Positions 10,448-36,105 of a DNA stretch of 64,000 bases are shown one piece after another. Position numbers and translations under genes: made by a program. Position 1 is the first letter of the stretch, and each line of letters begins with the position of its first letter. Origin of the DNA: Eledone cirrhosa (Eukaryota); the NCBI GenBank assembly GCA_964016885.1, contig OZ024741.1, positions 115,940,001 through 116,004,000 on the forward strand, given 5' to 3'. The notes beneath the pieces were generated by a model. It had not been told where the DNA came from, made no database searches, and saw nothing but the letters and a program-made list of their open reading frames with translations.

Positions 10448-10494
10448 GTTTCTAGCTATATTAGCTCCGCATACGTGTCTCCTACTTCCTCTCA

Positions 10495-11982
10495 ATGGTT
10501 ATGCGCCCCATAATCAAGATGTCCCCAGATGTATGTGATAGTACAGAGGACCTCCTCAGCAGAATCAGTGAGTGCAACAAAAACAGGAACCTATCCAACT
10601 GCATAATAGGCAGCATGGATGTTGTATCACTGTACCCATCCATTAACATTGATTTTGCTGTGGAAAAATGTGTGGAGATGATCATTGAGAGTGAGGTGGA
10701 GTTCTGCGACGTCGACACAGACGAACTGAGCCTCCTACTTAGACTTACCTACGACACTGACTACCTAGACAGGCATGACCTTAGACGTTTCTGCCCTAGT
10801 AGACCCATAAGAGGTAGACCTCCCACCATAACCTCAATGGCAAAAAAGACTCCCATGGGAAGGTGGATTGGGTGGACCAAAGCTATACGGACCCCCCAAA
10901 ACAATGATCAGGTAAGAAAAATGGTCGCACATGCAATAGGTGCTAGTATCAAAACTACCCTAAAGGGCCACATATTCAAGTTCAACGAGAAGATCTACAC
11001 CCAAAACGAGGGAGCAGCCATTGGTGTCAGCATAGTTCGTGATGTTGCAAACCTTTTTATGGTATGGTGGGAAAAGAGACTTAAAGATCTCCTTATTGAG
11101 AGCTCCATAAACCTCATCATGTACTCTCGTTACGTAGACGATATCAATATAGTTATAAGAACTTCCCCACTAGAGAGCACTAACAAGTTTGATTTAGAAC
11201 GTAGCACAATGGAAAGCATCCAGCAGATAGATAATTCCATACACCAGAGTATAACTGTAACTATCGACTACCCTTCCAAACACCCTAACAATAGGCTACC
11301 TGTATTAGACACGGAACTCTGGATTAACACTATAGACGAGAGAGCCCAAATTCTCCACTCACACTATGCTAAACCCATGGCCTCCAAATACCTAATACTC
11401 AAAAACTCAGCAATGTCCAGTAGTGCTAAGTTTAATATTCTGAGCGCAGATTTGGTACGAGTGATGAAGAATGTGTCCCGCATGTGCGACCCAACAGAAG
11501 TGGAAAGACACATCCAACACTTCATCAACCGCATCCGGTTCTCTGGCTACAACCAAAGAGACAGAGTCAGAGTATACGAAGGAGCCATGGAGAAGTATAA
11601 GACCCTCATAGGACTGGACATGAAAGGAATTTTCCCATTATACAGGAGCAAATCATGCAATAGCTTAAATAGGGCTAGACATAAGATAGGGAAATCTACC
11701 TCATGGTACGACAACCAGAGATACCAGAGTGTCATGTTTGTGGACGCTACCCCTGGAGGGAAATTAGCTAACCAGTGTAGAAAGGCCCTGAGAAAGACCC
11801 ACTTAAAGAATAAGGTGGTAGAAAAGCCAGGAACCACCATAAAATCCCTGATCAGCAAAACCTACCCTTTTAAGAAAACCCACTGTACTAATAGGAAATG
11901 TATCATATGTAAGGTAAACCTCCGGATAAACTGTAAAACTAGAAACGTAGTCTATAGCATAAGATGTACAGAGGGTACTTGA
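10495..11982 (+). CDS. Penelope-type reverse transcriptase (495 aa, truncated)
   Basis: ORF track; RT motifs as above. Confidence 0.8.
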   Translation: MVMRPIIKMSPDVCDSTEDLLSRISECNKNRNLSNCIIGSMDVVSLYPSINIDFAVEKCVEMIIESEVEFCDVDTDELSLLLRLTYDTDYLDRHDLRRFCPSRPIRGRPPTITSMAKKTPMGRWIGWTKAIRTPQNNDQVRKMVAHAIGASIKTTLKGHIFKFNEKIYTQNEGAAIGVSIVRDVANLFMVWWEKRLKDLLIESSINLIMYSRYVDDINIVIRTSPLESTNKFDLERSTMESIQQIDNSIHQSITVTIDYPSKHPNNRLPVLDTELWINTIDERAQILHSHYAKPMASKYLILKNSAMSSSAKFNILSADLVRVMKNVSRMCDPTEVERHIQHFINRIRFSGYNQRDRVRVYEGAMEKYKTLIGLDMKGIFPLYRSKSCNSLNRARHKIGKSTSWYDNQRYQSVMFVDATPGGKLANQCRKALRKTHLKNKVVEKPGTTIKSLISKTYPFKKTHCTNRKCIICKVNLRINCKTRNVVYSIRCTEGT

Positions 11983-12546
11983 AGAAGCATGACAACATAC
12001 ATAGACGAGACAGCTCGTAGCATAGGTGAAAGGATAGACCAACACTGGGGGAACTAAAAAGACGAAAAAACGGGTCAGTACTATACGAACATGCTAGACA
12101 ACAACATGACGGTAACATAGACAACATAGAAATTAAAATAATATCTAAACATAGAAATGACCCAGCAGATAGGCAAATCAGAGAGGCCAGTGAAATAGAA
12201 CTTAGAAGGCCAAGACTAAACAGAAAGAATGAATGGAATAACAACAACACCCAAACAAACAACACTGACCTAAGAGAAGTATAAATAAATAAATAAATAG
12301 ATAAATAAATAAAAAAATACATACACAAGCACAATAACAACAAACACATATAAACACACACTAGTAAAGATACCAATACACAGTCACCCAATCACGAACA
12401 CACATCAAACAAAACACTAAACACACGCACAAACGCATGCGCAAAGAAGACAAAATAAAATAAACAATCAAACAAATAAATAAATAAATATATAAACAGA
12501 CTAAATAAAGATGGCGTAGCCATACAACGTAACGGGATGAAACAAT

Positions 12547-19146: not shown

Positions 19147-19665
19147 CGCAAGGTTTTTGATATGAAATCGTGCGTTGAAACAAATAATTTTATATTTGGG
19201 GAGGACCATATTGTTATAACATTGCCAGAAGTAATAATAAAAAACGAAACAGTGATTGTGTTCTATTACTATTTGTGTTCTATTACTATTTTTGTTGGAC
19301 AAAAAGTGGACGTGGTTGCCTAAACACTGTACGGCGTAATTCGGGCTGTTTGTTTACAAACAAACAAAAAACCGAGCATTATAATAAATTGTCGGTAAAC
19401 CCATACGTGCATATATATATGTGTGCATGTATGTATTTATATATACATACTACTGTACGTCTGTATACATATATGTACGTATACATACATACATACATAC
19501 TTACATTTAAGTAAGTGCCGTACTAAGAGTGAGAAATGAAATTTCGTTTCATTCTATTCCATTTATCGTTTTCAGTGTGCCCGGCCGACTGAACTCACTC
19601 GATATGCAAATTAGGCTGATCAGCCGCTAATATGCAAGACGTTCGACCATCTGGCAGGAAGGTAT

Positions 19666-19709
19666 ACGATGCTGATGAATAGCTAATAAGCTTGAAACTA
19701 GTACATCGT
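19666..19709 (+). ncRNA. Type I hammerhead ribozyme, unit 1
   Basis: ACGATG / CTGATGA / atAGCT-aata-AGCTt / GAAAC-ta-GTA / CATCGT. Confidence 0.85.
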
Positions 19710-20115
19710 TCCTGTGTCAGTGTTGAACAAAAAGGTGACGTGGTTGCTTAACACTGTACGGCGTAATTCGGGCTGTTTGTTTGTTTAGAAACAAAGAAAC
19801 CGAGCATTATAATAAATGTTCGGTGAACCGATACGTGCATATATATATATGTGTGCATGTATGTATATATATATACATACTACTGTACGTCTGTATACAT
19901 ATATGTATGTACGTATACATACATACATACTTAGATTTAAGTAAGTGCTGTATTAAGAGCGAGAAATGAAATTTCATTTCATTCTATTCCATTTATCGTT
20001 TTCGGTGTGCGCGGCCGACTGAACTCACTTGATATGCAAATTAGGCTGCTCAGCCGTTAGTATGCATAAGGAAAGTATATACTTTCAGACGTTCAACCAT
20101 CTGGCAGGAAGGTAT

Positions 20116-20158
20116 ACGATGCTGACGATAGCTAATAAGCTTGAAACTAGTACATCGT
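20116..20158 (+). ncRNA. Type I hammerhead ribozyme, unit 2
   Basis: ACGATG / CTGACGA / tAGCT-aata-AGCTt / GAAAC-ta-GTA / CATCGT. Confidence 0.87.
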
Positions 20159-20557
20159 TCCTGAGTCAGTGTTGAACAAAAAGGTGATGTGGTTGCCTAA
20201 ATACTGTACGGCGTAATTTGGGCTGTTTGTTTGTTTACAAACAAACAAACCGAGCATTACAAAAAATGTTCGGTAAACCGATACGTGCATATATATATGT
20301 GTGCATGTATGTATATATATACATACTACTGTACGTCAGTATACATATATGTATGTACGTATACATACATAATTACATTTAAGTAAGTGCCGTACTAAGA
20401 GTCAGAAATGAAATTTAGTTTCATTCTATTCCATTTATCGTTTTCGGTATGCCCGCCCGACTGAACTCACTCGATATGCAAATTAGGCTGCTCAGCCGTT
20501 AGTATGCATAAGGAAAGTATATACTTTCAGACGTTTAACCATCTGGCAGGAAGGTAT

Positions 20558-20600
20558 AATATGTTGACGATAACTAATAAGCTTGAAACTAGTACATCGT
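20558..20600 (+). ncRNA. Mutated hammerhead ribozyme, unit 3
   Basis: Core TTGACGA (C3 to U); stems I and II damaged. Confidence 0.7.
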
Positions 20601-20963
20601 TCCTGTGTCAGTGTTGAACAAAAAGGTGACCTGGTTGCCTAAACACTGTACGGCGTAATTCGGGCTGTTTGTTTGTTTACTAACAAACAAACCGAGCATT
20701 ATAATAAATGTTCGGTAAACCGATACGTGCATATATATATGTGTGCATGTATGTATATATATACATACTACTGTACGTCTGTATACATATATGTATGTAC
20801 GTATACATACATACATGAGAAATGAAATTTCGTTTCATTCTATTCCATTTATATATACACATATATATATATATATACATGAGTCCCGAATTCAATCGGG
20901 GGTAAACGCAATAAGTAAGGTGCTCGACACATTAGTACAGTGTAAACATCATCTTTAATATAG

Positions 20964-21790: not shown

Positions 21791-21955
21791 ATACACTGTA
21801 TTCCTAATTGTTTCTACTATTGGCACAAGGCCAGCAATTAACCAGTACATTACTGGTACTTTGTTTTACGGGGTCGATAAAATAAAGTACCAGTAATGTA
21901 CTGGGCAATTGCTGGCCTTGTGCCAATAGTAGAAACAATTAGGCATACAGTGTAC
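21791..21955. repeat. Inverted pair of SINE tails including duplicated flank
   Basis: TACACTGTATTCCTAATTGTTTCTACT...AGTAGAAACAATTAGGCATACAGTGTA. Confidence 0.8.
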
Positions 21956-22391
21956 TAAGAGTGAGAAATGAAATTTCGTTTTCATTTTATTACAACTGAT
22001 CGTTTTCGGTACGCCTGGCCGACATAACTCACTCGATATGCAAATTAGGCTTCTCAGCCGTTAATTTACATAAGGAAAGTATATACTTTCGAACGTTCAA
22101 CCATCTGGCAGAAGGGTATACGGTGCTGATGATAGCTAACAAGCTTGAAACTAGTACATCGTTCCTGTGTCAGTGTTGAACAAAAAGGTGACGTGGTTGC
22201 CTTAACACCGTACGGCATAAATTCAGGCTGTTCAGTTTGTTTACAAACGAACAAAGCGGGCGCTATAATAAGCGTCCGCTAAACTGATACGTACATATAT
22301 GTATGTGTACCTGTATGTATATATATATATGTGTATATGCATGCTACTGTACGTCTGTATACATATATGTATGTACGTATACATACATACT

Positions 22392-22395
<4 letters not shown>
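21951..22395 (+). mobile_element. Solo ~445-nt retrozyme monomer with intact-looking HHR (22120-22162)
   Basis: ACGGTG / CTGATGA / tAGCT-aaca-AGCTt / GAAAC-ta-GTA / CATCGT; octamer at 22038-22045. Confidence 0.85.
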
Positions 22396-22428
<33 letters not shown>

Positions 22429-22796: not shown

Positions 22797-23015
22797 ATTA
22801 GTTTCTTATATAGGCACAAGGCCAGTGATTTTGGGGAAGGGGAAAGTCGATTAAATCGACCCCAGTGCGTGACTAGTACTTTATTTCATTGACCCCGTGA
22901 GGATGAAAGGCAAAGTTAACCTCGGCGGGATTTGAAATCAGATCATAAAGGGCCGTAACTCTTTGCTGCAAAGCATGGCGTCCGACTCTCTACCGATACT
23001 GCCAATCGACCGCCC
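22797..23015 (-). mobile_element. tRNA-derived SINE (longer variant)
   Basis: Consensus match; TSD TCCTTTCTCTCTATTATTA. Confidence 0.85.
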
Positions 23016-23484
23016 TCCTTTCTCTCTATTATTAGAAAGAAATTTCAATCAGTCTCTCTGGACCATTTAAAAAAAAATAAATGTAAGAAATGCTTTTAAT
23101 CCTTTGTCGTTGGTTTTGCGTTCTGTCCATAATATTTTCTCTAAACCATTTTTTATAATCACATTTCTAAAATATTAATACGAATCCTACATGTCACTTT
23201 AATATCCTTTAATAGTCGTTTTCTGCCATAATATTAATTTTCGTAAGGTCAGCACGTTTGACATGTTATCAAACGAAGATCTTAGTATCTCAATCTTTCT
23301 TTTGATTTCTGCTTCACATCTTTTTTATGATTGAAATATAGCTCAAATATATAACCTTGGGTGCCTGTTCAATATCCCAGGTATTTTAACTTCGTCCGCT
23401 TTTACATTAGTTTTCTCGCAATCTATTTTTGATTAAATAAAAAATAAATAAATAATTTTCGCTCTACATGGCTGAATATAATAA

Positions 23485-24107
23485 ATGTAATCTGAGTTTT
23501 TCGAATATTAATAATAACATTCGATTCGTTTGCAATTATACAAACAAGCCTCATTTTTATAGCCATGTCAGTAGAATGAACCCTTCATTCTCGTTCTTGT
23601 GTTGTCATGTAAACAGAACTGCAGACACTAATCTTTCTGGGTAGCACTCTTCATCAGTACAGCTCACTGGTCACCTGCCAAACTGCCAGAGCTAGTGAAA
23701 ATATATGCTATTTTCTAAAATATACAGTGACTGATAGGCCTGATTTGCATATTAGCAGACTGGCTGATCAGTCAGATTTGCATATTAGCAGATCCACTGA
23801 TCAGCCAGATTTGCATATCAGCAGACTGGCCAGTCTGCTGATATGCAAATCAGGCCAATCAGCCACTGTATATTATAGAAAATAGCATATATTTTCACTA
23901 GCTCTGGCAGTTGGCAGGTGAACAGTGAGCTGTACTTATGAAGGGTGATACCCAGAAAGATTAGTGTCTGCGGTCCTGTTTACATGCCAACACAAGAGCA
24001 AGAATGAATGGTTCATTCGACTGACATGGCTAAAAAAATGAGGGTTGTTTGTATAATTGCAAACGAATCGAATGTTATTATTAATATTCGAAAAACTCAG
24101 ATTACAT
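23485..24107. repeat. ~620-bp inverted repeat: head-to-head pair of HHR-bearing units with a central octamer cluster
   Basis: Arms are reverse complements around GCAGACTGGCCAGTCTGC. HHR-like motifs at 23604-23679 (minus, CTGATGA) and 23913-23988 (plus, CTTATGA). Four ATTTGCAT/ATGCAAAT in 23740-23850. Confidence 0.85.
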
Positions 24108-24306
24108 GTATTTTTTATTAGAATTATTTTTCTTTTCGATGACCATTGTTTGTTTTTATTTCACATCAATTTCCATTCAATACGACATTCTCCTGACATT
24201 TACGACAGCTGCGAGGTTAATTGTGTTAAATGTTAATAAGGCAGCATCGTCTGTTAATAGTCATCCCTCTTACTGACACTCTGAAATAGCATAAAATTCG
24301 TCTCCG

Positions 24307-33628: not shown

Positions 33629-33760
33629 TTTTATTTTATAGAAGGAGCTTCTACAGGACTAGTACTGTTTCATTCAGATGAAATCTTCAGGAAGCTTCCT
33701 GAAGATTTCATCTGAATGAAACAGTACTAGTCCTGTAGAAGCTCCTTCTATAAAATAAAA
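33629..33760. repeat. 132-bp perfect palindrome encoding an HHR on each strand
   Basis: Centre AAG|CTT at 33694/33695; arms checked base by base. Confidence 0.92.
33693..33743 (+). ncRNA. Type I hammerhead ribozyme (mirror copy at 33646-33696, minus)
   Basis: AGCTTC / CTGAAGA / tTTC-atct-GAAt / GAAACAG-tactagtc-CTGTA / GAAGCT; GUA cleavage triplet at 33735-33737. Confidence 0.82.
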
Positions 33761-34105: not shown

Positions 34106-36105
34106 ATATTAAATAAATGGAAACTATATTTATAAAACCATATTTATGTTCTTATATATATTTCAAGGGTACCAAGTCAACATTGGTACGCTTTCATCAG
34201 ATAAAATACAAAGTCTGTGTTACAAATAGAGACATACCCATGAAAATCATACCTTATCGGTTGTAAATTCACTGGATAGCGGAAATATATTAGGGATTAT
34301 TCAAACTTATGTGTGAATATGCAAATGAATATGTAAATAATTGAAAACCAACCGTTTATTTAAACGACACCGGAGAAAGAGAGAGAGAAGATATACGAGA
34401 GAAAGATAAAAATATTACGAGAATGAGAGAGAGAGAAGAAATAAACAAGAGAGGATGAATAAAACTCATATAACGTTAATTTGAGGGAAATATATTCTAA
34501 GTATATATCTTAATAGTACGTGTATTTACGATTATTAGTTGTTTAAAATTCGTTTATAATATAATAGTTTCTGTTATAAGTAGATAAATAAATAAATAAA
34601 TAAATAAATAGATAGGTATATCATGTTATAGATAATTGTTTTAATGAGTTATGGGGGATATTGGTTTTGTATTTAATGTAAGTAAATATTAAGTTAAATT
34701 AAATTAAATTAACTGAGTTAATAAGAATATTTATATTTATATATTTTTAAAATGGGAAGATACGGAAAAACTCCAATTTAATTTATTCATTCGTTAGTAT
34801 GAGACTATTTAGTCAAATTAAGTATAAATGTTGAAAGATATATTTAGCCAGAATCAGTTAGTGGTTATAAATCTAACAAAAAATATTGAAAAAATATTAA
34901 AAATTTGAGAACATTTAAAAACAAAAAAATTTATAAGAGATAAGTAATTTTTAAAAGAAATAAAAATTAAAGAAATAAAAATAAAGAATTAAAAATTATT
35001 AAGATTAAAATTACAATTAAAATTAAAATTAAAATTAAAATGTTTAAGGAAATTAGAATTATATATGTATATATTTTATGAAACTTTAAGAAGTGAAAAT
35101 ATAGCAAATGTTATAGATATTATGATTTAGAGATATCAATATATTAAAACCAAGTGGATAAGATTGTTATGGAAATAAGTAGAAATATTATAAGTATAAT
35201 TATAATTTATATATAGTTCTGAATGTTGAATTCAGGCGATGTCTACAATAATTAAATAAATTCGTTCTTAGATTAATAGAGTTCTTACATTTAAGTATGA
35301 AAGAGATTTCCTCAACACACAATTTACAGAATCTAGATAAAGCTGTGTTTCGGTACGCGGGTGCCTTCGAAACTATTTCCAAAGTTAATGAATAGTCCAT
35401 ATTCTTGCATTTTAAGTTCCATATCAGGTTTGATAGCGAAGTTGAAGATTTTTTATCATGTTTTCGGAAAGAGCATTTGTGATTATTCCAGCGACTTTTA
35501 AATTCTGTAGAAGTTGCACCTACATAGTTAAATATATTATCACTGGTTTTGACTGTACATTTATAGAACACGTCCTCATCTAAACACTTATTTTGTAAAG
35601 GACAGTTTGATTTAATTCTACAGTTACATTTTGCGGAGTTGTTGTTATTCAGAACGGTACTATTCTAGAGATATTACTGCTATTTTTGTTATTTTGGTTA
35701 GGGTTTAAATTTCTATTATTAATTCTATTTATATTTTGTGTTATGTTCGTAGTAGTAGAGTAGGATAGTTTTATAGTATATCTGTTAAAGATTGAGTGGT
35801 ATCTGTGGGCTTTAGGAAAACATTTATCTAGTGCTTTAAAGAATAGCTTTGCTAAAGGTGTTTTTACGCTTCATGAGAATGGGGGTGAATACCAAATAAT
35901 ATTTCTAGTCCTATTTCTTCTGTTAGTTTTAGAGTTTAAGTTAAATTTTTATTATAATCATAATTAATAGTAGGGTTATTTGCCTTATTACTGTTTTCGA
36001 TGTATTTAATCTTATTTATATAGCCTGCTCTATTTAAAGCTTCATTATAATATTCAGCCTTATCGTCAAAAATGTTTTTATTAGCAGAGATGCGTGAAAT
36101 ACGTT
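34100..36105 (-). mobile_element. Penelope-like element 3' part (GIY-YIG at 35200-35600 plus AT-rich 3' region)
   Basis: IIWYSPPFS, KLSYSTT, CNCR..CPL..KC, VFYKCTV...YVGATSTEFKSRWNNHK, CKLCVEE, CRH. Confidence 0.8.

Follow-up and report, generated by a model that had tools for sequence, protein, structure and literature searches.

Can a hammerhead ribozyme repeat contain a promoter of its own, and how would such a promoter be inherited? This question is raised by a locus in the 3.0 Gb genome of Eledone cirrhosa, lying within a window of 64,000 nt (contig OZ024741.1, positions 115,940,001 to 116,004,000). A first-pass annotation had noticed that an octamer and a TATA-like box precede hammerhead ribozymes in two repeat families, here called A and B, and had proposed that each monomer contains the promoter for the ribozyme that follows. 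The repeats were compared with each other, with their genomic copies and with the snRNA-type promoters of the host.

Hammerhead repeats of the window

The octamer ATGCAAAT was located by a position scan at 19604, 20034, 20476, 22038 and 23843, as had been claimed, and is part of a 12-mer, TATGCAAATNAG. Altogether the window contains 12 matches to the octamer against 4.9 ± 2.7 expected, a number attained by 2 of 100 shuffles. The repeating units of about 445 nt described earlier correspond to a family A tandem with a period of 442-444 nt (Table 1), and the array ends at the preferred 3' site of the family, adjoining a (TA)n tract. The palindrome reported for most units was indeed found in those at 20034, 20476 and 22038. 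From octamer to core, three A units measure 88 nt, as annotated, and unit 1, which has its palindrome deleted, measures 68 nt. In unit 2, TATA begins at 20076, which is 43 nt past the start of the PSE-like 12-mer (47-49 nt in host genes). The hammerhead core of this unit (20122-20152) has a 2-bp palindromic stem III and predicted cleavage after 20152. The separate A2 copy has its PSE at 22037-22048, its palindrome at 22075-22090 and its core at 22126-22156.

Table 1. Repeat, ribozyme and candidate promoter features of the window (window coordinates).
Feature	Position	Strand	Remark
Family A (A1) retrozyme array, ~3.5 units of 442-444 nt	19293..20852	+	
U6-type PSE-like 12-mer, unit 1 (TATA palindrome deleted)	19603..19614	+	
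Hammerhead core, unit 1; predicted cleavage after 19703	19672..19703	+	read directly
U6-type PSE-like 12-mer with octamer, unit 2	20033..20044	+	
Palindrome with TATA-like box, unit 2	20071..20086	+	
Type I hammerhead, extended stem I, unit 2	20091..20177	+	motif scan, fold
Predicted transcription start, unit 2	20106..20112	+	inferred: TATA+30 to PSE+79, host U6 geometry
PSE-like 12-mer, unit 3	20475..20486	+	
Hammerhead core with substitution (TTGACGA), degenerate, unit 3	20564..20594	+	read directly
Separate family A copy, A2 type	21951..22403	+	
Family B inverted (head-to-head) pair	23480..24112	.	arms 93-95% complementary
Family B hammerhead core, - arm	23624..23657	-	CTGATGA intact, stems II and III altered
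Three 33-nt repeats, one octamer each (23743, 23776, 23809)	23730..23830	-	
PSE-like 12-mer, family B + arm	23842..23853	+	16.9 bits
Family B hairpin with TATA-like box	23878..23896	+	TATA at offset 46
Family B hammerhead core, + arm	23935..23968	+	broken (CTTATGA)

Each unit contains a type I hammerhead with a conserved core, as judged by motif scan and folds, so that the type I folds announced by the first-pass annotation are present in the window. The cores at 20122, 22126 and 23935 came from the motif scan, and those at 19672, 20564 and 23657-23624 were read directly. An Rfam search of the window returned nothing at gathering score. When nine loci were searched by E-value, family D matched HH9 with 35 bits (E 2.5e-5), under the cut-off of 52, and the other eight had no match to a hammerhead model. 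Since Rfam matches are at most sub-threshold, the ribozyme assignment rests on core motif and fold. Rfam matches to miRNAs on (TA)n tracts were dismissed as chance.

Family B had been described as a single element dissimilar to A. It is an inverted pair which shares blocks with A, and a further family, G, bridges the two; an independent origin of A and B is thereby ruled out. The octamer-to-core distance of 92 nt was confirmed. The TATA word proposed for B, TATATTATA, was rejected as a copy-specific variant in the + arm of the window: TGTATATTTTAG stands in its place in the - arm and in most of 40 B copies. What corresponds in B to the A palindrome is the hairpin with the conserved TATA-like box listed in Table 1. 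The pair holds four octamers, three of them in the 33-nt repeats of the - strand, where the 12-mer at 23740-23751 is the PSE of that arm. Both B ribozymes of the window appear damaged. The base of stem III has G in both arms, against C in most copies, and CTTATGA in the + core is a minority allele (as seen in contigs of two runs of unknown kind); the + arm ribozyme is likely inactive, as judged from its core.

A first look at the genome gave more than 2,000 candidates each for families A and B. The units are non-coding and measure 444 nt (A1), 482 nt (A2), about 438 nt (B) and 461-469 nt (D). The 3' ends of copies fall at preferred sites, T-rich words beside (TA)n: unit position 407 for A1 (9 of 25 loci), positions 427-429 for D (16 of 32) and 264-274 for B (12 of 34). 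Their 5' ends are variable, inverted partners are frequent and many insertions are longer than one unit. There was no clear pile-up of 5' ends at the predicted start, a weak test, as these distributions were taken from fetched loci chosen for whole modules. Penelope-type insertions show such an architecture, according to part of a preprint (bioRxiv 10.1101/2021.04.23.441226), and the copies here look like Penelope-type insertions from a multimeric or circular template. By their sequence, families A and B are non-coding type I hammerhead repeats, that is metazoan retrozymes, with predicted cleavage and predicted circles. Family D forms long arrays of near-identical units of 461-469 nt (30 listed at G000:C1:5738332-5751969), and is the best candidate for an active family. 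SINE-like fragments of very high copy number, with the highest contig depth, were also noted at 21800-21945 and 22800-23015 of the window.

The 12-mer and host snRNA-type promoters

The top-scoring U6-type genes of the host share the word TATG(C/G)(A/T)AAT(T/G)AG, placed between -79 and -77, with GTATA(A/T)A following at -31. The Pol III reference set consisted of three independent loci of U6, namely a tandem array and two single genes with top scores, together with the top-scoring U6atac locus and the sole RNase MRP gene; the likeness to U6 had been noticed before the sequences upstream of U6atac and MRP were inspected. Among 21 distinct U6 upstream regions, the motif is in place in 6, displaced by an insertion in 1 and absent from 14, and seven of eight U6atac loci are without it. 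The motif-less U6 and U6atac loci were set aside, by judgement, as probable pseudogenes. Several U6 copies (the C19 array, L087 type) have PSE and TATA pushed apart by a SINE-like insertion some 190 nt long.

The proximal words differ between the Pol II and Pol III classes of the host. U1, U2 and U4 have AATTA near -90, TCAGT near -57 (-56 to -58) and a TATA-like box near -30, and none of the 11 U1, U2 and U4 promoters contains a word of the 12-mer type. A distal word, TTACCTCCCTT, near -260 is common to most host U1, U2 and U6 loci; it was found neither in the family A and B sequences of the window nor at the U6atac locus (L116) or the MRP locus (L124). Termination signals are T6-T10 in U6 and U6atac, and T5 then T6 in MRP. 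A similar word, GTGCGAATGAG at -71, begins the PSE predicted by similarity for U6 of S. japonicum in a passage of PMC5460494. Candidate promoter elements of U6, U6atac and MRP in Eledone cirrhosa emerge from our analysis and may serve to express guide or circular RNAs in this animal.

A 13-nt matrix was built from the five host Pol III promoters. Eight repeat families, A to H, scored 16.2-20.5 bits on this matrix (20.3 bits for the 12-mer of unit 2), compared with 12.2-19.0 bits for the host promoters in leave-one-out scoring, and the best site in the 11 Pol II promoters reached at most 5.7 bits. Background at the scores of families A-H is about 1e-5 per position, much of it being the repeats themselves. 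Most PSE-like words of the genome appear to come from these repeats (16 of 18 in the 790 kb sampled, 7 from one array). The orientation of the motif is fixed in all families found. A TATA-containing word follows the PSE in all eight, reading GTATATA in A and E as in the host; it is weaker in B and C. The PSE-to-TATA distance is 43-46 nt in A, B, C, D, F and G, of which A, B and D are abundant, compared with 47-49 nt in host genes, and host-like only in E (48) and H (49). In another repeat family, non-hammerhead on inspection, a PSE-like word is followed 10 nt later by GTATATAT (L164:1463, + strand; L167, - strand, offset 6175).

The octamer thus is, by position and sequence, at the proximal site of the Pol III type-3 promoters of this genome. 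As it stands where host U6 genes have their PSE, the vertebrate reading of a POU site, or distal octamer, becomes the weaker one. The module reads best as a U6-type PSE with TATA, and not as a vertebrate-style POU enhancer, protein binding being predicted from this likeness. The proposal of a built-in promoter gained strong support from comparison, with motif, orientation and a TATA-like box kept in eight related families and matching host Pol III type-3 promoters; its POU interpretation was weakened, and the TATA word proposed for B did not stand. The guess of a start near 20100-20110 agrees with the start of 20106-20112 that host geometry predicts for family A.

Conservation of the module and its possible meanings

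Hammerheads were also searched without reference to the motif in 79 evenly spaced stretches of 10 kb (790 kb). The 41 hammerheads obtained were grouped by eye into 16 families. Three of these (A, C and D) have the motif 89-101 nt upstream of the hammerhead, C and D at -100/-101. In the other 13 groups no site within 200 nt scored above 6.9 bits; scoring covered 29 of the 41 hits, as the remaining ones were repeats in loci already represented. By eye these groups are mostly minimal, Penelope-like hammerheads. At 33640-33760 the window also has two minimal, Penelope-type hammerheads arranged as an inverted pair, which lack the PSE motif.

Families E, F, G and H came from motif-anchored searches (G with three copies, H with one). 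Invariance of the motif is therefore circular for them, and A-D form the informative set; in these, identity is 0.92-1.0 for the 12-mer against 0.37-0.70 for the flanks. Over all families, the 12-mer is 0.92-1.0 identical, compared with 0.46-0.57 for five flanking segments and 0.42-0.48 for shuffled sequence. A and B had initially been flagged for the octamer, and all families are related by descent. As G bridges A and B, they have a common ancestor, and the 12-mer represents conservation under divergence, not convergence. Conservation of the octamer across copies and families, which the first-pass annotation had named, together with that of the spacing, as a test of its proposal, was observed in eight related families, A-D being the informative ones.

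Genome-wide, strict modules of motif plus ribozyme number 19,945 and 7,028 in two disjoint spacing ranges (about 27,000, a few places being counted twice), and reversed-pattern controls gave 0. Among the copies of the unbiased sample, 12 of 13 near-full ones of family A (7 from one array) and 4 of 5 of family C have kept an intact octamer. There are 1,343 modules without A at position 10 of the 12-mer; among 100 listed, about 52 are family D with G at this position (counted by eye). The A to G change is thus tolerated in amplifying copies.

These data can be read in several ways. One is a Pol II snRNA-type promoter, in which a YCAG word about 26 nt before TATA would be the core element and the octamer a POU-type activator, as is reported for newt satellite 2. 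A word of this kind stands 26-29 nt ahead of TATA and resembles the TCAGT-like words that host U1, U2 and U4 have at -56 to -58; the resemblance is convincing in B only: with a TCAGT matrix applied 24-30 nt before TATA, B scored 9.0 bits, G 3.7 and A 2.1, but C, D, E, F and H fell below 0. The octamer is triplicated in B and its distance to TATA varies from 43 to 49, as might suit an activator; against this, the octamer word occurs in 0 of the 11 host Pol II snRNA promoters examined, and the bases beside it agree with the Pol III genes. AATTA at the host-matching distance was not seen on inspection of the repeat families. T runs bear on the polymerase as well. Runs of 6 T are absent from those units of A1, A2 and D that were examined; there is one T4 in A1, three T5 occur in D and one T6 in the examined B unit. 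The T5 runs of D and the T6 of B could be Pol III stops, and would be irrelevant to Pol II, whose products the newt hammerhead transcripts apparently are, according to a part of PMC6765202. On balance a Pol II promoter seems unlikely. A reading as pseudo-LTRs of autonomous Penelope-like elements, the module being the promoter of these elements, appears very improbable to us. Penelope-like features are present, namely inverted and 5'-truncated partners, (TA)n targets and a palindromic stem III, but the units repeat head-to-tail without ORF. Moreover, tblastn with two ORFs of the window matched 23 of the fetched loci, with the strict module in 6 of them and at varied distance and orientation, and no consistent adjacency of units to an RT/GIY-YIG ORF was found with these two queries in 1.5-2 kb flanks of the fetched loci.

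The 12-mer might also be kept for a role in RNA, as a hairpin or protein site in circular RNA, with transcription by host read-through and the likeness to U6 as coincidence or relic. In the families, unit 2 included, a hairpin is predicted whose 5' arm holds the 12-mer (z of -0.5 to -4.7, compared with -0.1 to +1.7 for host promoters, which do not fold), so that RNA structure could add to the conservation of the motif. The TATA-like boxes sit in palindromes, the hairpin partners co-vary between families (C versus D), the A to G change at position 10 preserves pairing as G-U, and retrozymes seem promoterless according to part of a review (PMC7761336). However, the motif strand is fixed and the partner strand differs in every family; pairing alone needs no such fixity, which suggests a protein-read sequence wrapped into structured RNA. 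Furthermore, the fixed word matches a host Pol III element whose background is near 1e-5 per position, in the right orientation and with a TATA-like box after it. Within family D, changes in the hairpin give a mixed picture of covariation: 2 are compensatory, 14 one-sided and 15 pair-breaking. We regard a purely RNA-level role as improbable. The reading as a promoter of the retrozyme itself, of U6 type and made of the PSE-like 12-mer and the TATA-like box, appears probable from the sequence comparisons, with start and polymerase predicted from the host genes. That the repeats have a working built-in promoter at all, either Pol III U6-type or Pol II snRNA-type, is very likely on the same grounds.

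Some further observations were made on these sequences. The window contains, by eye, a degenerate Penelope-like RT with a GIY-YIG-like ORF at 10465-12280 (+), with relatives in many fetched loci, and a GIY-YIG-like fragment at 35200-35664 (-); Pfam returned no family for the two Penelope-like ORFs of the window. A change of TAG to TGG recurs inside the promoter hairpin in D and A (D loci L354-L373). Sense-strand A>G versus T>C changes in D are 14:2, or 12:4 (p=0.043) without two loci picked for the A>G allele, and 17:12 in A1, 8:9 in A2 and 34:34 in B. A footprint of ADAR (A-to-I editing) is a weak lead only, since the asymmetry in D is reduced by removal of these loci and is absent in A1, A2 and B.

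Proposed propagation and known systems

A U6-type promoter inside the unit would suggest the following cycle. Initiation, by the snRNA-promoter machinery and most likely Pol III, would take place in the 5' arm of stem I, at about 20106-20112 in unit 2, and transcription would read through into the following unit or units. Successive ribozymes would then cut, after 20152 and equivalent positions, freeing a monomer that contains the promoter of the next unit. In A and D cleavage probably occurs as dimers, given their 2-bp palindromic stem III; a part of PMC6765202 links short stem III to dimer cleavage. The monomer would circularise, and a Penelope-type enzyme would reverse-transcribe it, primed at a (TA)n target. 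Copying beyond one turn would place the promoter again upstream of a ribozyme, and the promoter would be inherited, where ordinary retroposition would lose such an upstream promoter. To give rise to a monomer again, an insertion would need two ribozymes. It may be, at somewhat below even odds, that a retroelement lineage captured an upstream U6-type Pol III promoter of the host, made it heritable through ribozyme-cut circular RNA, which linear SINEs cannot do, and spread about 27,000 intact modules. If true, PSE-TATA modules vastly outnumber true U6-type genes, and the modules could serve as dispersed Pol III start sites or as a SNAPc sink.

Promoters inside hammerhead repeats have precedent in schistosome and newt, and a part of the present finding may have been described earlier. 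A full-text literature search, older newt, schistosome and cricket papers and supplements lying outside its scope, gave no description of a U6-type promoter in retrozymes. A host-matched 12-mer with TATA, conserved across eight families, makes the origin of the high transcription of retrozymes testable with a few point mutants. It also offers a route by which a gene-external promoter could survive retroposition.

As far as described in parts of PMC7229834 (Cervera and de la Pena 2020), the metazoan non-LTR retrozymes resemble the present repeats: they are short, AT-rich, non-coding tandems in thousands of copies, with one type I hammerhead per unit and with proposed circle intermediates and Penelope helpers. 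Their cited length is about 300-390 nt, compared with units of 438-482 nt here. The 2020 review by the same group (PMC7761336) concludes, in the part concerned, that promoters seem to be missing from retrozymes, which would depend on read-through; the present repeats have a conserved module of host type. Penelope-like pLTR hammerheads are similar in their type I ribozyme, tandem and inverted insertions, microsatellite targets and an upstream copy that drives the downstream copy; unlike them, our repeats have no ORF.

The host U6, U6atac and RNase MRP promoters share with the repeats a common proximal word of 12-13 nt, its orientation and the TATA-like box after it. The repeats differ from these type-3 promoters by a spacing 3-5 nt shorter in six of eight families, by the distal element not found in A and B, by the location of the promoter inside predicted hairpins and by having no clear single terminator. 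The promoter of the Schistosoma SMalpha SINE-like repeats is tRNA-like, with gene-internal A and B boxes, in contrast to the upstream U6-type PSE and TATA found here. In both cases a promoter, of Pol III type in SMalpha, is followed by a hammerhead; the SMalpha promoter lands at the 3' end of the cleaved monomer, so that tandems are needed to propagate, according to passages of PMC6765202.

Satellite 2 of newts and salamanders is, like the present repeats, a tandem hammerhead repeat with a short, dimer-type stem III. Coats, Zhang and Epstein reportedly found in 1994 that the newt promoter lies inside the repeat and consists of an octamer and an snRNA-type PSE. The newt repeat is described as Pol II in a part of PMC6765202, whereas the motif here matches the Pol III class of the host. 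Moreover, unlike in newt satellite 2, here octamer and PSE form one word with a TATA-like box after it, in an invertebrate host and in at least eight families.
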